Assembly (NCBI GenBank): GCA_964508755.1
Contig: CAZDUZ010000001.1
Span: 15,110 to 79,109 of the forward strand
Length of the DNA: 64,000 nt
Direction: 5' to 3'
Origin: an uncultured Candidatus Saccharibacteria bacterium
Lineage (GTDB): Bacteria > Patescibacteriota > Dojkabacteria > SC72 > JAFGCJ01
The notes beneath the pieces were generated by a model. The model had not been told where the DNA came from. It saw only the letters and a list, made by a program, of their open reading frames with translations, and searched no databases. This document shows positions 7,070 through 29,696 of this stretch, in pieces. Within the stretch, counting starts at the first letter, position 1; the number at the start of each line of letters is the position of its first letter. The translations under genes and the position numbers were made by a program.

Positions 7070-7858
7070 TTAGAACTCATGCATATCTGCAACTGATTTC
7101 CCTCCATCCACGATGATCGACTGTCCATTGATGTAGGAAGCACCATCGCTTGCGAGAAAACTTACCACACTAGCTATTTCTTCTACTTCACATACTCGTT
7201 TCATCGGGTATTGTTTGGAAATGCTGGCATACCATTCCTCTAGTTCTTTATCTGTCCGATTATTTTGAGAATTTGCTATTCGAACGAATCCCGGGCACAC
7301 AGAATTTGTTCTGATTAAAGGCGCATAATCAAGAGCTAAACTTCTTGTGAGTCCATCTATGGCCGCTTTTGCAACAGAATAGACACAGAAGTTGGGTAGG
7401 GAAGCGAAGCTCGCATAGGAGGATATATTAATGATAGCGCCTCCTCCTGACTTTTGCATAAGAGGGATAGCATATTTTGCACATTTGAAGTAGCCTCCGA
7501 GGTTTGTGTTTAATGTTTTCTCCCATTCATCTTCTGAAATTGAGGTAACGTTCTTTGCCATACCTGCTCCATAGCGAGCCACGCAATTAACGAGGCAGGT
7601 TAGTCCTCCATATGTTTCTTCTGCCTGACTTACTACGGATTGAACGAACGAACTGTCTGTTACATCACCTTGTATGAATAACGCCTTACCTCCATTTTTT
7701 TCAATATTTTCCACTGTCCATGCGCCTGCATCGAGCATATCAACAACAACTACAGAATAGCCGTGTTTTGCAAGATCAATTGAAATGGCACCTCCGATTG
7801 ACGGTCCGCCGTCTTTGTATCCCATAGCACCTCCTGTTACGATTGCTGTCTTATTCAC
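7070..7858 (-). CDS. Short-chain dehydrogenase/reductase (SDR) family oxidoreductase
   Basis: N-terminal TGGAMGYKDG... Rossmann glycine motif and the catalytic YSVAKAAIDGLTRSLA (YxxxK) motif. Length 262 aa is typical. Confidence 0.8.
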   Translation of the reverse strand: MNKTAIVTGGAMGYKDGGPSIGGAISIDLAKHGYSVVVVDMLDAGAWTVENIEKNGGKALFIQGDVTDSSFVQSVVSQAEETYGGLTCLVNCVARYGAGMAKNVTSISEDEWEKTLNTNLGGYFKCAKYAIPLMQKSGGGAIINISSYASFASLPNFCVYSVAKAAIDGLTRSLALDYAPLIRTNSVCPGFVRIANSQNNRTDKELEEWYASISKQYPMKRVCEVEEIASVVSFLASDGASYINGQSIIVDGGKSVADMHEF

Positions 7859-10744: not shown

Positions 10745-13204
10745 ATGATGAAATTTTATTTTAAATTAGAACTAACCGTGACACCATACAACCCGAAATC
10801 ATTCGAAAAAAAATGGCAGGATACATGGTATTCCTCTGATGTGTACCATGCTGATGATTTTTCTAAGAAACCCAAATATTATATTCTCAGTGAGTTTCCC
10901 TATACTTCTGGAGATGGGGTGCATATTGGACACTGCAAGACCTATACCATGACCGATGTCATGGCTCGTCATGCCCGTATGAAAGGGAAAAACGTCTTGT
11001 ACCCCATGGGATGGGACGCATTCGGACTCCCAACCGAGAATTATGCAATAAAGACGAAGATTAATCCGAAAATTATAACCAAAGAGAACGTCGCAAATTT
11101 CAAGAGACAAATGCAGATGATGGGATGGTCTTTTGACTGGAGCAGAGAAATTGATACAACACAGCCCGAATATTATAAGTGGACCCAATGGATTTTCTTG
11201 AAGCTTTTTGAGAAAGGTCTTGCATACAAAGAAGAGATGCCGATTAACTGGTGTCCGAAATGCAAAACCGGTCTCGCAAACGAAGAGGTGGTAAACGGAA
11301 AACATGAGCGATGCGGAAGCGGGGTAACAACTAAGAAATTGAATCAATGGATGCTCAAAATTACTGCATATGCAGATCGATTAGCAGATGAACTTGAGGG
11401 TCTTGATTATTCGGAAAGTATTGTCGCAGCTGAGAGAAACTGGATTGGAAGGAAAGAATGGATTGATATCACGTACCCGATTGATGGTTCTGATGAGTCA
11501 ATTATCGTTTCTACCACAAGACCCGATACAAACTTTGGTGCAACCTTTGTCGTATTAGCACCAGAACATCCGGTCTTGAGCAAGGAAAAAGGACTTGTAC
11601 CAGAGCAATATCGTCAATCCGTGGATGAATATATTAGTAAAGCATTGAGTAAGACAGAGGAAGAACGTATTGCGGAAGGTCGAGAAAAAACGGGAGCTTT
11701 TACTGGGATGTATTGTATTAATAGGCTTAACGGAGAGAAACTTCCAATGTATGTTACTGATTTTGTACTCATGACTGTTGGTACCGGTGCAGTAGTTGGT
11801 GTTCCCGGACATGATAAACGTGACTTCGAATTTGCTCAGAAATTCAATCTTCCAGTTGTTCGTGTGGTACGAGGAAAAGATGGAGACGAATCAGACATTA
11901 CTTCTATTGATCAGGTGCAGGAAGAAGAGGGAACGATTATGAATTCAGATTTTCTAAATAATCTGGATATTCACGATGCTACTACAAAAGTGATGGACTA
12001 TTTGGAGGAGAAGGGGTGGGGGAAACGAGTAATTCGGTATCATCTTCGTGATTGGTTGTTTTCACGTCAGCATTACTGGGGTGAACCAATTCCTATCATT
12101 CATTGTGAAAAATGTGGTGCCGTACCAGTTCCCGAAGAGGATTTGCCGGTAGAACTTCCTGATGTCGTTTCGTATGAACCGACAGATACGGGAGAATCAC
12201 CCCTTGCTTCTATTACTGAATGGGTTAACGTGAAGTGCCCGGAATGTGGAGGCGAAGCGAAACGTGAAACTGACACTATGCCTAACTGGGCTGGATCAAG
12301 TTGGTATTACTTGCGTTTCTGTGACCCACATTGTGAAACAGGTATAGCAGACAAGAAAAAACTAGAGTACTGGATGCCGGTCGATTTTTATGATGGAGGA
12401 GCTGAGCATGTAACGCTTCATCTATTATATTCACGATTCTGGCACAAATTTCTTAATGATATTGGTGTGGCTCCCGGAATAGAACCATACAAATCGCGTA
12501 GAAATCACGGGATGCTTCTTGGGGAAGGTGGAACAAAAATGTCGAAATCACTTGGAAACGTCATTAATCCTGATGATTTGGTAGAGCAGTTTGGAACTGA
12601 TGTCGTACGGCTCTACCTAATGTTTGTAGGACCCTATGAAGGTACGAGCGAGTGGAGTGAGCGTGCAATTCAAGGAGTAGACCGCTTCGTGAAGAGATTT
12701 TGGGAGTTTCTTACCCAAAATCTTGAAAATCCAGCAGATTCCTGTGATGAGGATGTGGAGAAAGCAGTTTCCGTTCTTGTTAAAACGATTGACCGCAATA
12801 TACCATCAAGGAGATTCAACACATCGGTTGCAAGCATTATGGAGTTTTACAATAAGACGAAAGACAAGACATTATGTAAGGAGTGTCTTTCGTCGGTTCT
12901 TATTGCGATCGCTCCTTTCATGCCGCATCTTTCTGAAGAATTGTGGAATACCATGGGACATAAAGATTCTATTCATAAAGAGCAGTGGCCTAAGGTTAAG
13001 GAGGTTGCCCGAGATGCCATGGTTGAGATTCCTGTTCAGATAAATGGAAAGATCAGATCGAAAATTACCATACCTGCATCAGCTGTTGAGAAGGCAGTGC
13101 TCGCTGTTGCTCTTGAAGATGAAAAAGTTCAGAAGAACCTTGCAGGCAACGATCCTAAAAAAGCTATCTATGTTCCTGGAAAGATTCTTACCATAGTCGT
13201 ATAA
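10745..13204 (+). CDS. leuS: Leucyl-tRNA synthetase
   Basis: HIGH motif (DGVHIGHCKTY) and KMSKS motif (TKMSKSLGNV). The editing-domain region and anticodon-binding C-terminus are of LeuRS type. The ORF-track start at 10673 would translate the terminator hairpin, so the ATG at 10745 (MMKFYF...) is preferred. Confidence 0.9.
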   Translation: MMKFYFKLELTVTPYNPKSFEKKWQDTWYSSDVYHADDFSKKPKYYILSEFPYTSGDGVHIGHCKTYTMTDVMARHARMKGKNVLYPMGWDAFGLPTENYAIKTKINPKIITKENVANFKRQMQMMGWSFDWSREIDTTQPEYYKWTQWIFLKLFEKGLAYKEEMPINWCPKCKTGLANEEVVNGKHERCGSGVTTKKLNQWMLKITAYADRLADELEGLDYSESIVAAERNWIGRKEWIDITYPIDGSDESIIVSTTRPDTNFGATFVVLAPEHPVLSKEKGLVPEQYRQSVDEYISKALSKTEEERIAEGREKTGAFTGMYCINRLNGEKLPMYVTDFVLMTVGTGAVVGVPGHDKRDFEFAQKFNLPVVRVVRGKDGDESDITSIDQVQEEEGTIMNSDFLNNLDIHDATTKVMDYLEEKGWGKRVIRYHLRDWLFSRQHYWGEPIPIIHCEKCGAVPVPEEDLPVELPDVVSYEPTDTGESPLASITEWVNVKCPECGGEAKRETDTMPNWAGSSWYYLRFCDPHCETGIADKKKLEYWMPVDFYDGGAEHVTLHLLYSRFWHKFLNDIGVAPGIEPYKSRRNHGMLLGEGGTKMSKSLGNVINPDDLVEQFGTDVVRLYLMFVGPYEGTSEWSERAIQGVDRFVKRFWEFLTQNLENPADSCDEDVEKAVSVLVKTIDRNIPSRRFNTSVASIMEFYNKTKDKTLCKECLSSVLIAIAPFMPHLSEELWNTMGHKDSIHKEQWPKVKEVARDAMVEIPVQINGKIRSKITIPASAVEKAVLAVALEDEKVQKNLAGNDPKKAIYVPGKILTIVV

Positions 13205-18129: not shown

Positions 18130-18288
18130 GGGGTGAAACTGCAATATCGATAGAATTTCTTTGTACTATTATTACGTTACATTCCCTTCCTATGGTAAAA
18201 TAGCGCGTCGTACGAAAATATGCACTGGCTGTACTGTGAAAGGGTAGTTTGCTTGAGTTTTGGCTTACCTATTGCAAGCTCTTCGTAT

Positions 18289-18361
18289 GCACCTGTAGCT
18301 CAGTGGATAGAGCAACTGCCTTCTAAGCAGTAGGTCGTCGGTTCGAATCCGACCGGGTGCG
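18289..18361 (+). tRNA. tRNA-Arg (anticodon TCT)
   Basis: Cloverleaf: acceptor GCACCTG/CGGGTGC, anticodon stem ACTGC/GCAGT, loop CTTCTAA, T-loop TTCGAAT. Confidence 0.8.
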
Positions 18362-18424
18362 TATGTAAAAAAGGCCTGCTGAATACGGAGTATGTATTGT
18401 TCGTGAGATGCTCAAGTTGCATGT

Positions 18425-18497
18425 GCATCCATAGCTCAACGGATAGAGCACTGGTTTGCGGAACCAGAGGTTAGAGGTTCGAATCCTCTTGGATGCG
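18425..18497 (+). tRNA. tRNA-Arg (anticodon GCG)
   Basis: Close overall resemblance to E. coli tRNA-Arg(ACG), but the anticodon loop is TTGCGGA (stem CTGGT/ACCAG). The ACG isoacceptor is replaced by GCG. Confidence 0.7.
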
Positions 18498-18547
18498 TTT
18501 TTTGATAAACAGTTTCTATCAGAATATTAACGGAGAATGTTGTATTA

Positions 18548-18621
<74 letters not shown>

Positions 18622-19005: not shown

Positions 19006-21612
19006 ATGAAATTCAAGATTAGTCCTGAGTTATTAAGTAAGTATCCGACTGTCTGTGAGTACATAGTTGTTGCACGTGAAGTGAACAACGAGATTGCCGG
19101 TAAGTCTATTGTGGATAGAATGTCTGTTGTGACGCATGAGATAAAGGAAAAAGGTAAGGAGTTGTTGAATAATGAACGGTATTCGCGATGGGAGCGTGTC
19201 TATGAAGAGATGGCTCGTACTGCTTCTTTGAAACCCTCTGATTTCCACGCGTCTCATGTAGCTTTGACAAAACGTGCTTTTTCTGGAAAAGGGCTACCTA
19301 ATATTAATCCTCTTGTCAATTTTTATAACATGTACTCTCTTAAATATGGAGTTCCCTTTGGTGGGGAGGATCTTTCCACTGTATACGGAGATCTTATTCT
19401 TACTGTATCTAAGGGTGGTGACCTTTATAAGGGTATTGGAGAAAGCATTGTCGAAAAGACAAACGCAGGAGAGGTGACTTGGAAAGATGATTACTCAGTA
19501 ACCTGTAGACTGTGGAATTGGAGGCAAAGTGACCGGACGAAAATTACACGAAACAGCAAGGATATTTATTTCATTATTGATGGATTTACAGACCTTCCTG
19601 ATGTCGAGTATGAGAAATTAGTCACTGATTTTTGCCATGAAGTCCAAACGGTATTTGGTGCAAAAGTTGAGTACGGGAAGATCTCCGCGGAATCACCTGA
19701 GTTTGAAGTGAATTATGTTACAAAAAGTGTTTCTGGTATCGATGCAGAGACAGAAATGTCTTCCAAAAGTGCGTCAGGAAAAGCTAAGAATAAAAACACT
19801 GATAAAACAAAGAAAATTCTACAAAGAAAGGCTGCAATGCTGGGATTAAAAGATGGGAGTCATCTTTCAGAGAGAGTCACAGCCATTGTAGATGAAATTA
19901 TTGGGGAACATAATGGTGGTGGATCATCCACCCTGTCATTGTCGCAAAACTCTCCGTTTGGTGATTTTTCAACGACTCTCGCACTGAAGCGTGCATCTGT
20001 ATTGAAAAAATCTCCACAAGAAATTGCTCAGGAAATGGTACAAAAACTGGTATCAGATCCAAAAGGACAGTCGCTTTTTTCGAGTGTAAGTGCGGCACCG
20101 AATGGATTCATTAATCTTACCTTGTTAGATTCAGTACTTGTTGATGAGTTGGTTTCTGCATACAGAAAAAAAGATAGCTTTGGCAACTCTGAAGTAGGGG
20201 AAAACCGGACAATTCTAATTGAAAGTCCTTCCATTAATCCAAATGCCGCCGCGCATATCGGCCATCTTTTAAATCTTTTTATCGGTAGGGCGTTGGGAAG
20301 GTTATTTACGAAGGTTGGATTTGATGTCAAGGTCGATAACCTCATTAATGATCGTGGGATTAAGATTTGTATGGCAATGTGGGGGGTAGCTAATCTCTCA
20401 GAGTCTAGTAATCCTACTGAGGCTGGTTTAAAGCCAGATCAATTTGTCGGGTTATCGTATGTGAAGGCAAAACAGCTTTATAATGAGGATTCTTCAGTGA
20501 AAGAAGAGATTCAGCAGATGCTTCGGGATTGGGAGGAAGGCAAACCTGAGGTGATGGAACTTTGGAAAAAGGTCGTCGGATGGGCCTATGAAGGACATAG
20601 ACTGACATTTGAAAGACTGGATGAGGTAGAGGGTCATCTTTGGCTTGAGAGCGAAATATACAAAGGCGGGAAAGATGTGATTCAGTCATATCTCGGTAAA
20701 GGAGTAATAGAAAAACTACCCGATGGCGCGGTTATTGGACGTTTAGAAGAAAAATATGGAATCCCTGATGTAATTCTTCTGAGGGCCGATGGGACAAGTT
20801 TGTATGAAACGCAGGATATCTACTTGACGATGTTGAAGGTGAAGAAATTCAATCCCTGGAAGGCTATATGGGTTGTCGGTAATGAGCAGATTGCACATTT
20901 TCAGAAGCTTTTCGCACTATTTGAAGCACTCGAAATACTGAACGTGGATAATTTGTATCATATGGGATACGGAATTGTTGTTGATAAAAAGGGAATCAAG
21001 ATAGGGAAAAATGCAGCCGATGCCACCGCAGATACCGTTCTCGATCAGATGCGAGACATGGCGTTGTCGATTATGAAAGAGCGAAAAATTAAAAGAACGT
21101 TGGAAGATGAAGGGGATATTGCTGAAGCTGTGGGACAGGGAGCCCTCAGGTATGCGTTTCTTTCAAAAGATCCCTTTCTTGGCACGGTGTACGATCCTGA
21201 GTCTGCTCTTTCATTTACTGGTAGAAGCGGGCCATATATTATGTATGCCTATACAAGAGCAAAAAACGTGCTAGGAAAGGTATATAAAGATACTGCTCAC
21301 GATGAGGGTAAAGAGGTAGACTCTCTCTTGAGTGAAGATATTTCTTTATCACCTGAAGAGAAATCGCTTGCTCTTTCTATACTGCAGTACCCGGAGATCA
21401 TTCTTTCTGCTGCTAATGCGTATGCTCCAAATGTTGTTGCAGAGTACTTGTACAAACTTGCAAGACAATTCAGCAATTTCTACGAAAAGATGCCTATTGC
21501 TTCGGCAGAAGGAAACGAACGCCATCTGAGAATTCTTCTTACATCTCTTACGAGTACGATTCTCAAGGATGGTTTATCAATCCTAGGAATAAGAACACTT
21601 GAGAATATGTAA
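19006..21612 (+). CDS. argS: Arginyl-tRNA synthetase with an N-terminal B3/4 (PheT-like) domain fusion (868 aa)
   Basis: aa ~1-230 (ISPELLSKYPTVCEYIVVAREVNNE ... ) resemble the B3/4 domain of COG3382/PheT beta. aa ~300-868 contain the ArgRS N-domain, the class I HIGH motif (NAAAHIGHLLN) and a DALR-like anticodon-binding region (GALRYAFLS), ending ...LENM. Confidence 0.8.
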   Translation: MKFKISPELLSKYPTVCEYIVVAREVNNEIAGKSIVDRMSVVTHEIKEKGKELLNNERYSRWERVYEEMARTASLKPSDFHASHVALTKRAFSGKGLPNINPLVNFYNMYSLKYGVPFGGEDLSTVYGDLILTVSKGGDLYKGIGESIVEKTNAGEVTWKDDYSVTCRLWNWRQSDRTKITRNSKDIYFIIDGFTDLPDVEYEKLVTDFCHEVQTVFGAKVEYGKISAESPEFEVNYVTKSVSGIDAETEMSSKSASGKAKNKNTDKTKKILQRKAAMLGLKDGSHLSERVTAIVDEIIGEHNGGGSSTLSLSQNSPFGDFSTTLALKRASVLKKSPQEIAQEMVQKLVSDPKGQSLFSSVSAAPNGFINLTLLDSVLVDELVSAYRKKDSFGNSEVGENRTILIESPSINPNAAAHIGHLLNLFIGRALGRLFTKVGFDVKVDNLINDRGIKICMAMWGVANLSESSNPTEAGLKPDQFVGLSYVKAKQLYNEDSSVKEEIQQMLRDWEEGKPEVMELWKKVVGWAYEGHRLTFERLDEVEGHLWLESEIYKGGKDVIQSYLGKGVIEKLPDGAVIGRLEEKYGIPDVILLRADGTSLYETQDIYLTMLKVKKFNPWKAIWVVGNEQIAHFQKLFALFEALEILNVDNLYHMGYGIVVDKKGIKIGKNAADATADTVLDQMRDMALSIMKERKIKRTLEDEGDIAEAVGQGALRYAFLSKDPFLGTVYDPESALSFTGRSGPYIMYAYTRAKNVLGKVYKDTAHDEGKEVDSLLSEDISLSPEEKSLALSILQYPEIILSAANAYAPNVVAEYLYKLARQFSNFYEKMPIASAEGNERHLRILLTSLTSTILKDGLSILGIRTLENM

Positions 21613-22947: not shown

Positions 22948-24262
22948 TAGGTTCATACAAAGCATTCGTCTCTTCCTTCTAATTTCTTCCTTACATGTAA
23001 TTATTAGACACTTGCTGTTTGGTGGGTGAATTACAATAATGTCGTTTTGGAGGGTTTATGTCAGCGTTCTGGCAGTGGTAGTGGTCGCATGCTATGTTAA
23101 GTGTTTATCCTCATTAATGCAAAGCTTGTTAAAGAATGAGTGGAAATGATTTATTGATGCAGTGTAGGGAGTTGCGTTCTCTCGTGTTTGAGGTGGGGCA
23201 AATTTTGTATTTCTGTTTGAGGTTTCGGGTGTTGAGTAGGATAAGAGGATGTGGATGGCCTTTGAAAAAAATAGATCTGTAGAATAGGTGTCCTACTATA
23301 GGTTTTATTCTTACGGATCACGCTCCTTGGGAAGTATATATTCTTGTTCTCAATGTCAGATGATGATGGAAGAAAGAGTCATCGTTTCATTTGAATCACG
23401 AAATGATTTCCCGACGGGTGGCAGGTCGAAGAGATGAGCTTGTATAGTTTTGAACTCAGAATTCTGTCATCGCTCCATCGAGAGTGATTATTTTTTAGTG
23501 GAGGTCATGATTTGAGGTAAAACGGGTAACTTACTCTTGAGATTGCAAGATGTTGTGTTCGGTGATGGGTAAGACCCAGGGGACGTCTGGAAGATTTGTT
23601 TACGGCGGTGGAGGTAATAGAGCTTGTATTTTTACAGAGGAATGTGTCTTCAACGTTCTACGATGTTGTGGGTTACTTTCGTCTTAATTGCTCATCTTGC
23701 GATTGGTATGGTTGGCTTACTGTGTGGTGAAGGTTTACCTTCATAAGTATAAATTCTAGATTTGAGTTGAGACCTATAGGGTGTGGGTGGGAAAACGGCT
23801 TACGTCACTTTGTTCATATTCTATGATTTCTTTACATTAAAACAATAATTGTTAGTTTGACGGGTGGGGTGGGTGATGGGTTTTATGAAGTGACGTTATA
23901 AGGTTCTAATAAAACCATTCATTAGAAGGGATTGTTTTGATGGATATTGAAAATAGTAATCGGTCTCGCTCCGATAGAAACACTACAGGTCCGTGTTCAG
24001 GGCTCACGACTTTACGTACGACTGTCTGTAATTAAGTAGGGGTGCTGTAATAAGAATTGTGGTGGGTAAAAAATGTAAACGATATTGTGTTTTTTGTCAG
24101 AAAATTAGTGAGAATGGTCAAACGAATTGAAAAGTGATTTATAGAAGATGATGATGTGTAGAATAATAATATAGGTTTGAAATATGTGTGAAGAATTCTA
24201 TTATTTTCTGTTCATTTCTATAGGTGGTTGCTTAACGGAGTAAGAATCTTTACAATGGAATT
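22948..24262. other. 1.3-kb ORF-free, GT-skewed region (no ORF of 60 aa or more in six frames) containing G-quadruplex motifs. Candidate large ncRNA or remnant element.
   Basis: The ORF track is empty here, which is unique in this window. Plus-strand composition is dominated by G and T with very few C. GGGTGGGGTGGGTGATGGG lies at 23862-23880. GTTTGAGGT is repeated. It lies between the tRNA-Pro 3' end and the Lon-like gene. Confidence 0.5.
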
Positions 24263-25618
24263 ATGTCAAATGGAATGGATCAGGCAGAGCAGACAAATCA
24301 ATTAGCGGAAGTACTTTTTCTTCTTCGCAAACTTGAGGGTGCTCGCTTGCCTGCAGGTCTTCGTGAAAAGATTGATGTCATGCTCAAGAGACTTCGTAGA
24401 ATGGCCCGACAGGGAATTTCTGCAGGTGAGTACGAAGCGGTAGCAAAATATATCGACTGGTGTATGAATGTTCCGTGGGGAAGATATGTACAGGACAATC
24501 TCGACTTAAATAACGCAAAACAAGTCATGGATATGCATCACTATAGCCATGACAATATTAAGTCGGTCATTTTGGAGTTTTTAGCAATACTTAAGCGAAA
24601 AACCGAGCTTGGTGAAAGCGAGTACAGCTCTCCTGTCCTTGCTTTTGTAGGTGTGCAAGGTTCTGGTAAGACCACGTTAGCTCGAGCAATTGCGGAGGCT
24701 CTTGGAAGGCCATTTTTCAGAATTTCACTTGGTGCGATAGGACATTCTAGCGAGTTACGAGGTTCTCCATCCTCCGATTACTCTGGTCAACCCGGACAAA
24801 TTATTCGATGTTTAGTTAATTCACAGTGTATGAATCCCGTTATACTACTGGATGAGTTTGACAAGGTGAGCGGAGAAGAGTCATTAAGGAAAGATTTCAT
24901 GGCAATTATGCTTGAGATTCTTGATCCTCAACAAAACCGTACATTTAGGGACTGGTACCTTGATTATCCTGTCGATTTGTCAAAGATACTTTTTATTGCT
25001 ACTGCAAATCGTTTTACGACACTGAGCAGAGAATTGCTCGATCGTTTGGAAATTATTGAATTTAGCGATTATCCCATTGATATTAAATATCGGATAGCGA
25101 AAGATTATCTTTTTCCGTTAGTTTTAACGTACGCAGGTTTGAGACCAGAGGAGCTGGTAATTGATGATGAAGTCTGGCCAGACATTGTGAATCGTTTCGG
25201 CCAAGATCAAGGAGTACGAAGACTTGAAAGAAACCTCCAACGGGTAGCAAGGGTTGTCATAAAAGACATTATGACAGGGAAAACAGGTGCCGTACGAATT
25301 GATCGAAGCAACGTTAATCAATATCTTGAACAGGCATTGCCATCAATTGAGGCAATTCGCAATATCGATTATACCCTTGGTCCTGATCAGGGTATCGGTA
25401 GATCCATTAAAACTGCTTCTGTTGTCGATACAACCGGTGGTGTCGCGCACCTTACTGACAGTAATCCTGTCCCGAGTTCTATGGCATCTACGGACCAAAC
25501 ATCCGTTGTCGATTCTAGTGTACCGGTAACAGCAGTCGCAGATACTAGTACCCTCAGTACATTACCAGATCAAACTTCTGTTCAAGATCAAGCAAATCAG
25601 CAACCTCAACCAATCTAA
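24263..25618 (+). CDS. Lon-like AAA+ ATPase lacking both the LON N-domain and the S16 protease domain, with a Ser/Thr/Pro/Gln-rich C-terminal tail
   Basis: LDWCMNVPWGRYVQDNLDLNNAKQVMDMHHYSHDNIKSVILEFLA followed by Walker A GVQGSGKTTLARAIA, ...ILLDEFDKV (Walker B) and sensor/Arg-finger region IATANRF...LLDRLEIIEF match Lon ATPase-module blocks. The ORF ends after ~120 aa of low-complexity tail with no protease Ser-Lys dyad. Confidence 0.7.
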   Translation: MSNGMDQAEQTNQLAEVLFLLRKLEGARLPAGLREKIDVMLKRLRRMARQGISAGEYEAVAKYIDWCMNVPWGRYVQDNLDLNNAKQVMDMHHYSHDNIKSVILEFLAILKRKTELGESEYSSPVLAFVGVQGSGKTTLARAIAEALGRPFFRISLGAIGHSSELRGSPSSDYSGQPGQIIRCLVNSQCMNPVILLDEFDKVSGEESLRKDFMAIMLEILDPQQNRTFRDWYLDYPVDLSKILFIATANRFTTLSRELLDRLEIIEFSDYPIDIKYRIAKDYLFPLVLTYAGLRPEELVIDDEVWPDIVNRFGQDQGVRRLERNLQRVARVVIKDIMTGKTGAVRIDRSNVNQYLEQALPSIEAIRNIDYTLGPDQGIGRSIKTASVVDTTGGVAHLTDSNPVPSSMASTDQTSVVDSSVPVTAVADTSTLSTLPDQTSVQDQANQQPQPI

Positions 25619-25685
25619 TGGCCTTAAGCAAACCAGCAACCTCAACAAATCTAACGGCCTTAAGCAAATCAGCAACCTCAAGTTC
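25591..25685. repeat. 36-bp imperfect tandem repeat (2.6 copies) spanning the stop codon of the Lon-like gene
   Basis: AGCAAATCAGCAACCTCAACCAATCTAATGGCCTTA / AGCAAACCAGCAACCTCAACAAATCTAACGGCCTTA / AGCAAATCAGCAACCTCAAG, with period exactly 36. Confidence 0.8.
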
Positions 25686-25751
25686 TTCCCTTGTAGCATT
25701 GCAATCGTTAACGGTATCCCCGAGGAGAGTTGATTTTGCTATAATCCGTCT

Positions 25752-26090
25752 GTGAATATTGTAACTGGTATTGATATAGTGGATATTGCTGAGTTTCAAG
25801 CTCAACTCGATCGAGGTGGAGAACGCATGGTAAAGAGATGTTTTTTCGATTCAGAACGTGATAATGCTTCTATTGAGCGCCTTGCCGGGACATTTGCAGC
25901 GAAGGAAGCTGTCATCAAAGCATTATCCTTAGGCCATTCTTCGTGGAAAAAGGTTATGGTTAAACATGCGCCTGACGGAAGACCAATTATTCAGTTGTTA
26001 GATGTGCAATGCTTGATAATATCATCGGATGTATCTATCACTCATACTGATTCCGTTGCCGCAGCTCAATTTGTTGCAATTCTTTCATGA
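25752..26090 (+). CDS. acpS: Holo-[acyl-carrier-protein] synthase (4'-phosphopantetheinyl transferase, AcpS type)
   Basis: GIDIVDIAEF ... LAGTFAAKEAVIKAL conserved AcpS blocks. 112 aa. The stop overlaps the next gene's start (ATGA). Confidence 0.75.
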   Translation: MNIVTGIDIVDIAEFQAQLDRGGERMVKRCFFDSERDNASIERLAGTFAAKEAVIKALSLGHSSWKKVMVKHAPDGRPIIQLLDVQCLIISSDVSITHTDSVAAAQFVAILS

Positions 26091-28612
26091 AACGAATGAG
26101 TCCTTTCAACAATCTTTCAGAGTACATTTCTTCATGTGCTTCTTCATTCCCTGACAATACTGTCATGCAGATTCGTCGTGGTTTCACGACAGAAAAGTAC
26201 TCTTATAAAGAGCTTGACCGTTTGATGAGGCAATGTGCTTCATATTTATATAAGACTGGTCTGAGGAAAGGTGACTGTGTATTGATATGGGGTCCAAATA
26301 TGCCAGAGTGGGTAGTGGCGTTATTGGGAGTTCTATCAATTGGTGCCGTTTCGGTGCCTGTCAGTATGCATGCCACCCCTGAAACGGTTGATGAATATCT
26401 CCGACAAACCAATGCGAAATTTCTTCTTCGCTCACGATTTGTAAATGATCGTAAGCGACGTGGCGTCACCGCAATTGATCTCGAAGACGTTATAACATCC
26501 TCACGAAAGTATGAGGAGATGAAGCTGCCGAAGATTAAACCTGATGATGTAGCTGAAATAATGTATACCTCCGGGACCACGGGAGATCCTTCCGGGGTAG
26601 TGCTGAGCCACGGAAATATTCTTGAAGGACTTGAAGGTCTTCGTCTTTTGGTACCTCCTTCCTCTGAATTTCGTTTGCTTTCAATACTTCCGTTAAGTCA
26701 CGCTCTGGAACAGCTTCTTGGATTTTTCACTCTCATACGCTTTGGGGCAACGGTTTACTATGTACCCCGAATAAATCCTGTTGTGATTGTGCGCTCTCTT
26801 AACCGCTACAAAATAACTCATCTCATCGTTGTGCCTGAATTGATCAAGGTGATGTGGAATTCCATTGAACTTCAGGCTCAGCAAAAAGGAGCTCTCTTAA
26901 AGCTGCAAAAAGCATTGAAAATAGCTCCGCATCTCCCAATGTCTCTTCGTCGAGTATTGTTTAAGGATGTTCATAAAGCTTTTGGTGGAAAGCTAAAGCT
27001 TCTTGCCTGTGCAGGAGCTCCACTCGATGTATGGGTAGGGGAGAATTGGGAAAAAATAGGTGTCGTAGTGCTTGAAGGATATGGCTTAACAGAGACAAGT
27101 GCTGCTTTGACGGCGAATCAAATACATGCAAGAAAAATAGGATCCGTAGGAAAGCTTTTACCTGGAGTTGAAGTAAGATTTTCAAAGGATGGTGAGGTCC
27201 TCACTCGGGGTTTGAATGTCACGAAGGGATACTACAAAAATGCAAAGAAGACTAAAGAATCATTTACCTCAGAGGGTTTCTTTAAAACGGGAGATGTCGG
27301 ATATGTAGGTAAGGATGGATTCGTGTATTTAACCGGTAGAAAAAAATTCAAGATTGTTATACCGACAGGAGAAAAAGTATATCCTGAAGATGTTGAGCGT
27401 TCTTTAAATGATCACCCTGCAGTAAAAGAAAGTTGTGTTATAGGTATTAAAAAGGATCGTGGTGAGATTGTGCATGCGGTGCTCATCCTGAAGCGAGATA
27501 TTGATCCTGCAACAGTTATTGCTCAGGTAAATTCTCAGCTTGAGTCTCATCAAACAATTCTTGAGTGGAGCTTGTGGAAAGACGATGATTTTCCCCGTAC
27601 TCGGTCACTAAAAAAAGATAGAAACAGAGTAAAAGAGTATGTGATGGGTACTATTACTTCATCAAGCAGCGACCTACCGCAAGATAGTAAAGCCACTACC
27701 TCCCAACGTGATCCACTAAAGGATATTATCTCTGCTGTTTTTAGTGTTGACGCTCATTCTATAACTGAAAATACCTCTTTAGTGTTTGATCTTCATATGG
27801 ATTCATTACGCCGGATTGCCTTAGTTTCCCTTATTGAAGATGAATTTGGAGTGGTTGTGTCTGAACAAGATCTTGTAGAATCTACAAAAGTGGAAAATGT
27901 CCGAATCCTCATTAAGGAAGGGAAGAAATCGGTTGAAAGTAAAGCGATTCCTTCTTGGCCAACTGCTCCTTTCACCGTAATTATAAGAGATTTGATTCGG
28001 ACATTTCTCTTTTTTCCGATTTCAAGACTCACCCTTGCCCGTATAGAAATTGTGAACAAAGAAGTGGTAAAAAATATGAAAGGACCATCAATTATTGCTT
28101 TTAATCATGTCGGACATTTAGAGCCACTAATGATTATGGTCTCGCTTCGCCGTGCGATTCAGAAAAAACTGTTTACGCTTGCAGATGCAGATGGATTCTA
28201 TCTCTGGATTCGTCGTTTCTTTTTATACTTCTTTGCAGGTGCATTTCCAGTAGAGAAGCATGGTGGGCCTGTTCGTCAGACGCTTGAATTGGCTGCTGAC
28301 CTTTTGGAAGACGGGTGGAGCTTACTTATGTCACCCGAAGGAAATAGAAGTTCTGATGGAAATCTTTTAGAATTCAAACAGGGGACGGGTATGATTGCTG
28401 TTGAAACACGTGTACCTGTTTATCCTGTGAAAGTGAAAGGTTACCGCGAGGCACACGTAAGTCTAAAGAAGGGTATTTTTGACGTTTTTTTTGATTTCGC
28501 AAAGCCAGGTAAAAAAGTTACGCTTGTTTTCGGCGAGCCGATCGTTTTCGACCCCAATACTTCGCACGAACAGGCGACTGAGAAGATTCGTTCCGTGATT
28601 GAGAACTTGTAG
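26087..28612 (+). CDS. Tri-domain acyl-ACP synthetase (AMP-binding) / acyl carrier protein domain / PlsC-type lysophospholipid acyltransferase (Aas-like)
   Basis: AMP-binding motifs (MYTSGTTGDPSGV, GYGLTET, TGD...GRKK), a phosphopantetheine-attachment site LHMDSLRRIALVSL, then the acyltransferase motifs NHVGHLEP and MSPEGNRS. Confidence 0.75.
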   Translation: MKRMSPFNNLSEYISSCASSFPDNTVMQIRRGFTTEKYSYKELDRLMRQCASYLYKTGLRKGDCVLIWGPNMPEWVVALLGVLSIGAVSVPVSMHATPETVDEYLRQTNAKFLLRSRFVNDRKRRGVTAIDLEDVITSSRKYEEMKLPKIKPDDVAEIMYTSGTTGDPSGVVLSHGNILEGLEGLRLLVPPSSEFRLLSILPLSHALEQLLGFFTLIRFGATVYYVPRINPVVIVRSLNRYKITHLIVVPELIKVMWNSIELQAQQKGALLKLQKALKIAPHLPMSLRRVLFKDVHKAFGGKLKLLACAGAPLDVWVGENWEKIGVVVLEGYGLTETSAALTANQIHARKIGSVGKLLPGVEVRFSKDGEVLTRGLNVTKGYYKNAKKTKESFTSEGFFKTGDVGYVGKDGFVYLTGRKKFKIVIPTGEKVYPEDVERSLNDHPAVKESCVIGIKKDRGEIVHAVLILKRDIDPATVIAQVNSQLESHQTILEWSLWKDDDFPRTRSLKKDRNRVKEYVMGTITSSSSDLPQDSKATTSQRDPLKDIISAVFSVDAHSITENTSLVFDLHMDSLRRIALVSLIEDEFGVVVSEQDLVESTKVENVRILIKEGKKSVESKAIPSWPTAPFTVIIRDLIRTFLFFPISRLTLARIEIVNKEVVKNMKGPSIIAFNHVGHLEPLMIMVSLRRAIQKKLFTLADADGFYLWIRRFFLYFFAGAFPVEKHGGPVRQTLELAADLLEDGWSLLMSPEGNRSSDGNLLEFKQGTGMIAVETRVPVYPVKVKGYREAHVSLKKGIFDVFFDFAKPGKKVTLVFGEPIVFDPNTSHEQATEKIRSVIENL

Positions 28613-29348
28613 TATCTGAGGGCGGGTAGGGCATTCCTATAAGAAATACGGTCTGTTTGTTACTGAGATCGGGGATGGATTGATCTTTTTTCCAATCTGA
28701 AACGAGTTTTGTAGTTATGAGTTGCTGATCGGTTGTGAGATTTACCGCAATGGTAACGGCAAGAAATGATGGAAGTGTTGCGATGATGTCACTGAGGAGA
28801 TAATTATTCCTGTATGGTGTTTCGATAATAATATGAGTGACACCCGCTTGACTTACCGTTCTTCCTATAGCGTTAATTGCACCCTTCCTGCCTATGGGGT
28901 CAGCAGGCACGTATCCAATAAAGGTAAACTGTTGTGCATGCAATCCTGATGCCATGAGTGCTAGCATAATCGAAGACGGGCCTACCAGTGGTACGACAGT
29001 AATTCCGTTTAAATGAGCATGAAAAACATAGATACTTCCAGGGTCAGCGACAGCAGGACAACCAGCTTCGCTGAGCATTCCAATCGATACGCCCTTCTTT
29101 AATAGTGCAATCACCTCCTGAATCTCAATAGCACTTGGATTCTTTGTTAAGGGACGCATCTCTATCTTCTGAATAGGGACTGGTAGAGATAATTGTTTTA
29201 GATAAGCGCGAGCTGTTTTGGCGTTTTCAACGAGATACTGTTCCAGTTTACCAATAACGTTTCTGGTTTCATCAGGAATTGATCCAATTGGAGCGTTAAT
29301 TCCTAATGGCACTGGAATGAGATATAAGGTTCCATTTTGAGTTGTCAT
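28518..29348 (-). CDS. rsmI: 16S rRNA 2'-O-methyltransferase RsmI (tetrapyrrole-methylase fold)
   Basis: N-terminus MTTQNGTLYLIPVPLGINAPIGSIPDETRNVI and the later GCPAVADPG block match RsmI. The track start 29381 is probably upstream of the real start at 29348. The C-terminal basic tail overlaps the convergent gene by ~95 nt. Confidence 0.75.
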   Translation of the reverse strand: MTTQNGTLYLIPVPLGINAPIGSIPDETRNVIGKLEQYLVENAKTARAYLKQLSLPVPIQKIEMRPLTKNPSAIEIQEVIALLKKGVSIGMLSEAGCPAVADPGSIYVFHAHLNGITVVPLVGPSSIMLALMASGLHAQQFTFIGYVPADPIGRKGAINAIGRTVSQAGVTHIIIETPYRNNYLLSDIIATLPSFLAVTIAVNLTTDQQLITTKLVSDWKKDQSIPDLSNKQTVFLIGMPYPPSDTTSSQSRNESSQSPVRAKYWGRKRSARRKQA

Positions 29349-29384
29349 ATACATATTATACCCTATGAAAGATGTAAACACTGA

Positions 29385-29425
29385 AAAGGCAATGGTAGAA
29401 AAGGCAATGGTAGAAAAGGCAGACT
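29385..29425. repeat. 15-bp tandem repeat GAAAAGGCAATGGTA x2.5 in the rsmI upstream region
   Basis: Exact direct repetition seen in the sequence. Confidence 0.7.
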
Positions 29426-29481: not shown

Positions 29482-29555
29482 GCACCTGTAGCTCAAAAGG
29501 ACAGAGCAGCGCACTCCTAACGCGCAGGTTGCAGGTTCGATTCCTGCCAGGTGCG
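29482..29555 (+). tRNA. tRNA-Arg (anticodon CCT)
   Basis: Acceptor identical to the TCT isoacceptor (GCACCTG/CAGGTGC). Anticodon loop CTCCTAA, as in E. coli argW. Stem GCGCA/CGCGC has one A-C mismatch at 31-39. Confidence 0.65.
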
Positions 29556-29621
29556 TATGAAAGCTTTATTGTCGTCATGGGAAACATCTCTTACTAACCA
29601 ATGGTTACGATAGAACCATGA

Positions 29622-29696
29622 GCTCCCGTAGTTCAATCGGATAGAACGTCGGTTTCCGAAACCGAAGGCTTACAGGTTCGAGTCCTGTCGGGAGCG
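29622..29696 (+). tRNA. tRNA-Arg (anticodon CCG)
   Basis: Acceptor GCTCCCG/CGGGAGC, D-stem GTTC/GAAC, anticodon stem TCGGT/ACCGA, loop TTCCGAA, T-loop TTCGAGT. Confidence 0.75.

Follow-up and report, generated by a model that had tools for sequence, protein, structure and literature searches.

What remains of a Lon protein when its protease is gone? The question is raised by one gene in a stretch of 64,000 nucleotides (hereafter the window) of contig CAZDUZ010000001.1, which comes from an uncultured Candidatus Saccharibacteria bacterium placed by GTDB in the Dojkabacteria. Lon is known from textbooks as a single chain that unites an ATPase with a protease, and this gene encodes a Lon-type AAA+ protein that carries neither the N-terminal substrate-binding domain nor the S16 protease domain. 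Our reading is that it belongs to a functional family of stand-alone LonA-derived AAA+ ATPases in bacteria of the candidate phyla radiation (CPR), that its product acts as a remodeller, and that a tandem repeat lying across its stop codon is a silent product of replication slippage; to these three points taken jointly we give a probability of about 0.7. That the product of this open reading frame (ORF) is functional and belongs to a family of protease-less Lon-type ATPases is, as judged from sequence, near-certain. The features of the folded part of the protein are as follows.

24263..25618, + strand: coding sequence of the protease-less LonA-type AAA+ ATPase, an ORF with an ATG start (451 amino acids plus stop)
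24263..24610, + strand: N-terminal helical bundle, residues 1-116, equivalent to LonA ~243-340, the helices before the ATPase core (Lon chain alignments)
24650..24673, + strand: Walker A GVQGSGKT, residues 130-137 (family columns; Gln132 is family-specific, Lon having Pro)
24758..24796, + strand: pore-loop-1 segment RGSPSSDYSGQPG, residues 166-178 (ungapped HMMER alignment to Lon RGHRRTYIGAMPG)
24839..24856, + strand: Walker B VILLDE, residues 193-198 (family columns)
25007-25009, + strand: sensor-1 Asn249 (family columns)
25043..25045, + strand: arginine finger Arg261, in LLDRLE (family columns)
25133..25282, + strand: Lon-type alpha-helical lid subdomain, residues 291-340 (PF22667 Lon_lid, E 9.7e-10)
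25217-25219, + strand: sensor-2 Arg319 (family columns)

The domain content was established in several ways. Pfam searches of the 451-residue protein, to which the database protein P0001 is 100% identical, gave AAA at residues 127-268 (E 1e-20), Lon_lid at residues 291-340 (E 1e-9) and weaker generic P-loop models, and no match to Lon_C (PF05362) or LON_substr_bdg (PF02190). The NCBIfam equivalog TIGR00763 ('lon') is covered only at positions 258-569 of its 795, with a score of 299.5 bits that falls below the cut-off of 608.05. Residues 14-356 align with solved Lon structures at an E-value of about 1e-66, the alignment beginning at Lon residue ~243-250. An AlphaFold2 model, for which 32 family sequences were the input, is confident over residues ~10-370 and shows the N-terminal bundle as helices 7-25, 31-49, 57-69, 82-92 and 97-116; when it was compared with the PDB by Foldseek, the top matches were all Lon AAA+ modules, with a template modelling score of about 0.65-0.69. 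The preliminary description of this locus, made without database searches, had called the protein Lon-like and lacking both terminal domains, and each of these analyses agrees with it.

That description also considered that an intact protease domain might come into frame once a frameshift was corrected, and this case was tested. A tblastn search with Lon_C in all frames of the 64-kb window and of 92 related loci (about 1.1 Mb) found nothing at E<=1e-3, and when the threshold was relaxed to E<=10, Lon_C and LON N-domain probes gave only noise in every frame. A hidden protease or N-domain, in-frame or frameshifted, was rejected on this basis. Both probes were E. coli sequences: the Lon_C probe was validated against Pfam PF05362 (E 7e-88) and detects 110 of the 150 listed database Lon relatives, while the N-domain probe, not separately validated, detects 83 of the 150. 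The protease search covered 64 kb of the source genome and +/-10 kb around its relatives. None of the large ORFs in the window is related to Lon; they encode LeuRS, PBP2, topoisomerase I, an acyl-ACP-synthetase/acyltransferase fusion and surface proteins.

The same architecture recurs well beyond the window. A scan of metagenome contigs with the window protein alone gave three close relatives; a scan with the family alignment gave 80 loci, which together with 12 loci fetched otherwise make up the 92 used here. In all of them the ORF is 295-485 amino acids long (the shortest are cut by contig ends) and stops a few residues past the lid. The 120 best database homologues measure 235-616 amino acids, typically ~370, and all consist of AAA and Lon_lid only; the named members among them are 'AAA family ATPase' from Candidatus Dojkabacteria, WWE3 and Patescibacteria. 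The window protein is 39-87% identical to the 92 loci and the 120 database proteins, whose architecture matches its own, and the protease-less arrangement is common to all 203 unique homologues (Dojkabacteria, WWE3 and other Patescibacteria). Lon_lid was found in 32/32 aligned members, Lon_C and LON_substr_bdg in 0/32. Furthermore, an exhaustive HMMER search of 1.84 billion representatives placed about 17 short protease-less clusters (at 50% identity) above or among the canonical Lons of ~800 amino acids.

Members can be recognized by a core of ~330-425 amino acids, consisting of the helical bundle, AAA and Lon_lid and ending at the lid, together with a GxQGxGKT Walker A and Trp305; the window protein fits this signature, and Gln132 and Trp305 are invariant in the family. 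We found no Pfam or NCBIfam model specific to it. In evolutionary terms, the family keeps the helical bundle, the ATPase core and the lid of Lon and has lost the N-terminal substrate-binding and S16 domains throughout. It is a Lon-derived family, widespread in CPR bacteria and apparently undescribed.

The ATPase site is conserved throughout. Over the 203 unique sequences, the Walker A Lys136 is present in 202, the Walker B Asp-Glu in 203, the sensor-1 Asn249 in 203, the arginine finger in 203 and the sensor-2 Arg319 in 201. In the core, the proportion of non-synonymous differences (pN) between the window gene and its three closest orthologues is 0.10-0.12, against a proportion of synonymous differences (pS) of 0.83-0.96, which is saturated; the codon comparison thus indicates strong purifying selection on the ATPase core. 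These results bear on the suggestion that the gene is a decaying Lon pseudogene (or, in a variant taken up below, that the repeat is an assembly artefact). Such a view could draw on the 1.3-kb ORF-free stretch upstream and on the source, which is a metagenome-assembled contig. However, the architecture is family-wide (203/203), the catalytic residues are essentially invariant, core pN is about 0.11 against saturated pS, and no remnants of an N-domain or protease were found in the window or the 92 loci. For the gene itself the pseudogene, or degenerate Lon, is effectively refuted, and the explanation as a whole, artefact included, is scarcely credible.

In AAA+ proteins generally, the arginine finger completes the ATP site of the neighbouring subunit, and its invariance here argues for a ring oligomer; judging from these residues, the protein almost certainly hydrolyses ATP in that form. 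What the ring does with the energy is a separate matter, on which the pore loop bears. In MtaLonA, the pore-loop-1 Tyr397 and the pore-loop-2 Trp431 contact the substrate, and each is needed for degradation (PMC8503904). In the ungapped alignment of Lon RGHRRTYIGAMPG with the window segment RGSPSSDYSGQPG, Tyr397 falls on Asp172, and Tyr173 comes one position later. Over the 203 sequences, this column holds Phe 39 times, Tyr 10, Asn 30, Glu 28, Asp 25 and Ser 21 times, besides others, so that 49/203 are aromatic; within the clade at least 55% identical to the window protein (n=70) the count is 0/70, the residue being Asn, Asp, Ser, His or Glu. In place of the basic HRR of Lon, the family has S/P/S-type residues, and the residue before the conserved Pro-Gly is mostly Glu. 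At the Trp431 column no family member has Trp, a point to which we give little weight, since E. coli Lon is not known to have Trp there either.

As inferred from these columns, the activity that the family conserves is something other than processive threading, and a classical threading unfoldase is doubtful. The idea of a standalone unfoldase, raised in the preliminary description, therefore survives in part: the ATPase site is intact, and the pore-loop-1 tyrosine is replaced. We propose that the protein is no longer a processive unfoldase feeding a protease chamber and that the ring ATPase would instead work as an ATP-driven remodeller or regulatory ATPase acting on some client. As a best guess, we would call it not a protease but a ring-forming remodeller or regulator driven by ATP, and to a mechanism of remodelling in place of unfolding we give about even odds.

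The comparison with LonA (TIGR00763, MEROPS S16) makes the relationship explicit. The two share the helical bundle, the alpha/beta ATPase and the Lon-specific lid. Over ~340 residues, the identity to bacterial Lons is about 36-43%, and the window protein keeps the Walker A and B motifs, sensor 1, the arginine finger, sensor 2 and the LDPEQN...F.D.Y.D.P.DLS segment. It differs in having no LON N-domain, no Ser-Lys protease domain and a TIGR00763 score below the cut-off; moreover, the HRRTY of LonA reads SPSSD(Y) here, GPPG reads GVQG, and there is a disordered tail. We would not classify it as a Lon protease, since it fails on the N-domain, the protease domain and the equivalog score, and the pore tyrosine is absent as well. 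LonC, for example that of Meiothermus taiwanensis, is likewise a Lon-family protein minus one of the two activities of Lon. LonC is reported to have no ATPase or ATP-powered unfolding and to retain protease function (PMC3391209, PMC13069640); on that account it is the mirror image of the window protein, LonC keeping the protease and the window protein the ATPase.

A different account would be a split Lon, in which the ATPase works in trans with a separate S16 or other peptidase, as in ClpX-ClpP and HslU-HslV, or sits as an extra tier on a canonical Lon ring. The fully conserved ATPase machinery is in its favour, and in four database proteins (P0121, P0122, P0123 and P0126) a single Lon_C is preceded by two or three Lon-type AAA+ modules in tandem, which means that stacked modules do occur in nature. 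However, no Lon_C lies within +/-10 kb at the 92 loci or in the 64-kb window, no peptidase gene is recurrent among the neighbours of the family loci, and the pore-loop-1 tyrosine used for threading is not conserved. Among free-standing unfoldases, ClpX and HslU, of the HCLR clade, are also single-ring AAA+ proteins without a covalently attached protease, but their pore loops remain aromatic and each has a dedicated partner peptidase, often from an adjacent gene, whereas the window family has no conserved pore-loop tyrosine and no partner was found near its loci. We regard a split Lon as rather unlikely.

The multi-AAA Lons of this group (P0121-P0129) resemble the window protein in that they contain Lon-type AAA+ and lid modules not directly before a protease domain; in them, however, the extra modules are fused in one chain ending in Lon_C, whereas the window protein is a single free module. 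According to Pfam, these proteins are ~900-1700 amino acids long, with two or three tandem Lon-type AAA+/lid modules and then a single Lon_C. To our knowledge, such a multi-tier Lon architecture has not been reported in the literature.

Gene neighbourhoods were also compared. The order in the window is argS, ykuD, tRNA-Pro, a 1.3-kb ORF-free stretch, the AAA gene, acpS and an acyl-ACP-synthetase fusion, and this order is common only to the closest relatives, which have five or six genes (M20 peptidase, DUF1295, archease, RtcB and a divergent membrane protein) in place of the ORF-free stretch. Elsewhere in the family, three tightly packed, operon-like arrangements recur. About 35 loci have rpsO-pnp-(zinc-ribbon/transmembrane protein)-AAA-udg-rnj-ftsK, with overlaps or gaps of 1-3 nt around the AAA gene. 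The order folD-glyA-thyX-dcd-sufS-AAA, after which come a small convergent gene and a VirB4-like ATPase, is seen at about 25 loci, and yidC-jag-rplY-AAA at about 10. As weak functional evidence, these contexts are of a housekeeping kind and lean to nucleic-acid metabolism. A role as an anti-phage defence ATPase was considered and rejected: PADLOC defence models (e.g. IetA and DolB) gave only weak, partial, generic P-loop matches (best E 4.8e-8), and no defence partners were found in the neighbourhoods of family genes.

In about 21 loci (L023, L045, L046, L054, L057, L062, L073, L077 and others), the zinc-ribbon/transmembrane gene lies directly upstream of the AAA gene, often overlapping it, and a family-4 uracil-DNA glycosylase gene follows 1-3 nt 3' of the AAA gene. 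The upstream protein has an N-terminal CxxC...CxxC and one transmembrane segment, as judged by eye. The zinc-ribbon membrane protein and the uracil-DNA glycosylase are candidate functional partners of the Lon-like ATPase. A more speculative extension, which we consider unlikely, is that CPR bacteria have reinvented the Lon motor to act, with a membrane zinc-ribbon partner, on nucleic-acid enzymes (uracil-DNA glycosylase, the thymidylate pathway, or PNPase/RNase J of the operon-linked RNA-decay genes), or as a detachable tier for a protease encoded elsewhere, the tail then serving as a tether or client arm.

Several points weigh against the reading of a functional CPR family of remodelling Lon-type ATPases. 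Tyr173, beside the canonical position, might still touch the substrate, and about a quarter of the family retains an aromatic residue at that position, so that threading may persist. As for the neighbourhoods, in the streamlined genomes of CPR bacteria a shared order of genes may stem from inheritance and not from function, and the context in the window (tRNA-Pro and the ORF-free stretch upstream, acpS downstream) is unlike the common arrangements. Finally, our literature searches turned up no paper describing such a protease-less family in CPR.

Beyond the lid, the protein changes character, and it is here that the repeat is found.

25334..25378, + strand: clade-specific motif ALPSIEAIRNIDYTL, residues 358-372, just past the end point of most family members
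25391..25615, + strand: disordered, low-complexity, hypervariable tail, residues 377-451
25590..25681, + strand: 36-bp tandem repeat, two full copies plus a 20-bp partial one (2.6 copies with 92% matches by Tandem Repeats Finder, TRF)

The motif of ~15 residues that precedes the tail, given as ALPSIEAIRNIDYT in the window protein and modelled by AlphaFold2 with a short helix at 362-366, has the consensus [AVK]LP[SN][IV][ED]x[IV]Rx[IK]D[YF]T in members at least 55% identical and is missing from distant ones. In the tail, the predicted local distance difference test (pLDDT) is <50 for residues 377-447 and the composition is S/T/V/D/A/P-rich, which bears out the low-complexity tail noted earlier. 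Among the 120 homologues, the sequence past the lid amounts to 0-264 residues (median 18) and is Q/S/T/P/N-rich, mainly in the Dojkabacteria-like clade, and some of these tails have short peptides repeated in tandem (P0034 has QSQQEVQYT x 2.5, P0066 DLKTSPxLN x 2). In the comparison among the window gene and its three closest orthologues, the tail has a pN of 0.47-0.63 and a pS of 0.64-0.82; that is, non-synonymous divergence nears the synonymous level. The C-terminal ~75 residues form a predicted disordered, fast-evolving extension specific to the Dojkabacteria-like clade, which probably grows and shrinks by replication slippage.

The tandem repeat is the highest-scoring of the window (TRF score 163). 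The 36-mer occurs twice, within 3 mismatches, against 0.00 expected from shuffles, and its 18-mer core three times against 0.06. It does lie across the stop codon, as had been described, at 25590-25681 (previously given as 25591-25685): copy 1 carries the last 9 codons and the stop, TAA at 25616-25618. The earlier expectation that copy-number change would extend or alter the C-terminus does not hold, however. In the frame of the gene, the region reads ANQQPQPI*WP*ANQQPQQI*RP*ANQQPQVLPL*, and every full unit contains ...ATC TAA YGG CCT TAA. Since each unit supplies two frame-0 TAA codons, the first stop stays put when whole units are gained or lost, and the protein is not lengthened. Copy 2 departs from copy 1 at 3 of 36 positions: one change is synonymous, another exchanges Pro and Gln, and the third falls past the stop. 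An unequal exchange between the two copies could at most change residue 450 from Pro to Gln. To judge from this reading frame, extra copies fall outside the ORF and are near-certain to be silent for the protein. The three differences also argue against an exact duplication made by the assembler, and the whole 92-bp array is shorter than a typical read, which likewise speaks against the assembly artefact mentioned above.

The repeat is missing from the orthologous loci L001 (which has a 24-nt spacer to acpS), L011 (a 119-nt spacer of unrelated sequence) and L012, and it was found nowhere else in the window nor in any fetched locus; weak, unrelated short repeats occur near the 3' ends of other family genes. 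Most simply, the repeat would have arisen in this lineage alone, by a slippage duplication between two direct repeats of 20 bp located 3' in a tail prone to such events, and the stop happened to be included. The repeat is probably functionless.

Two other explanations of the repeat involve the gene that follows, for which the features are listed here.

25737..25745, + strand: extended -10 box TGCTATAAT, 6 nt before the acpS GTG (window sequence, with the same spacing in L001 and L011)
25752..26090, + strand: acpS, holo-ACP synthase, with a GTG start (Pfam ACPS, E 8e-13)

The acpS gene is syntenic with the AAA gene only in the closest relatives (L001, L002 and L011). A TGnTATAAT box stands exactly 6 nt upstream of the acpS GTG in three genomes: the window, L001 (~11378-11404, TGATATAAT-6 nt-GTG) and L011 (~7390-7410, TGCTATAAT-6 nt-GTG). 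This spacing suggests that the box is the promoter of a leaderless acpS mRNA.

The first of the two explanations is that a frameshift, whether real or a sequencing error, cut the tail short, and that the ancestral protein continued in the +2 reading SKSATSTNLMAL SKPATSTNLTAL SKSATSSSS... to a TGA that overlaps the acpS start. The +2 frame is open over about 25549-25755 and contains a Ser/Thr-rich 12-residue repeat of tail-like composition, ending GTGA at the acpS start, and the L001 gene does end just 24 nt before acpS. However, the A/C-rich unit has its + strand stops only in frame 0 and can be read through in the two other + frames as well as in one minus frame, so that openness is not significant. 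Moreover, the closest relative, L011, likewise has a spacer of ~120 nt before acpS, the +2 product has negligible similarity to the C-termini of relatives, and the sequence shared with L001 near 25730-25750 is the acpS TATAAT box and not coding. With both alternative + frames open and the L001 homology explained by the -10 box, the frameshift-extended tail was dropped as the main reading and appears quite improbable.

The second is that the repeat is a functional element, either by supplying repeated binding sites that lie 60-150 nt before the acpS promoter or by belonging to a small antisense gene. It adjoins the conserved extended -10 box on its upstream side, and the minus strand is open through it, an ORF of 83 amino acids (25805..25554) reading EVADLLKAVRFV repeats. 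On the other hand, the repeat is not kept in L001, L011 and L012 although the -10 box is conserved, and it occurs nowhere else in the window. The antisense ORF overlaps both flanking genes and has no Pfam match, on which ground it was rejected. A function of either kind is very improbable, and a silent slippage duplication remains the preferred reading of the repeat.

The remaining observations concern the surroundings of the gene. Upstream, one further feature can be listed.

24177..24204, + strand: promoter-like TTGAAA-16-TATTAT, ~59 nt upstream of the start codon (consensus scan, 10/12 matches)

This is a pattern match only, such sites being no commoner in the region than expected from shuffling. 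The ORF-free stretch (22950-24262) has no ORF >75 codons in any frame, is T-rich and strongly C-poor (12% C), and has a GC skew of +0.33 to +0.46; it gave no Rfam match and no similarity to any fetched locus. Remnants of the genes that relatives have in this place (M20 peptidase, DUF1295, archease, RtcB and the membrane protein) were looked for in it, and none was found. Downstream, the stop of acpS and the start of the gene behind it overlap (ATGA, 26087-26090), and the latter gene encodes an 841-residue protein (26087-28612) with AMP-binding (acyl-ACP-synthetase-like), phosphopantetheine-attachment and acyltransferase parts. Together, acpS and this fusion look like a compact lipid-scavenging module, kept in the closest relatives.

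Elsewhere in the window, five Arg isoacceptors cluster around argS (18288-18621, 19006-21612 and 29482-29696): three tRNA-Arg genes (TCT, GCG and TCG) lie directly upstream of argS and two more (CCT and CCG) 8 kb downstream. The argS orthologue of a relative has an N-terminal B3_4 domain according to Pfam. A perfect 15-bp tandem repeat, GAAAAGGCAATGGTA x 2.6 at 29383-29421, adjoins the start of a minus-strand ORF (28518-29381) before tRNA-Arg(CCT).

What, then, does the locus mean for the family? The tandem repeat, seemingly a contingency locus, is immaterial to the protein. The naming of the family is of more consequence. Some members are labelled 'ATP-dependent Lon protease' in JGI/IMG, NCBI using 'AAA family ATPase'. 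Metabolic and proteostasis reconstructions of CPR bacteria that use the JGI/IMG label may credit them with a protease that is absent, and surveys would over-count Lon. In biological terms, a family whose Lon ATPase site is intact but which lacks protease, N-domain and, within this clade, also the gripping tyrosine would amount to a natural separation-of-function experiment, which asks what a lone Lon motor does.

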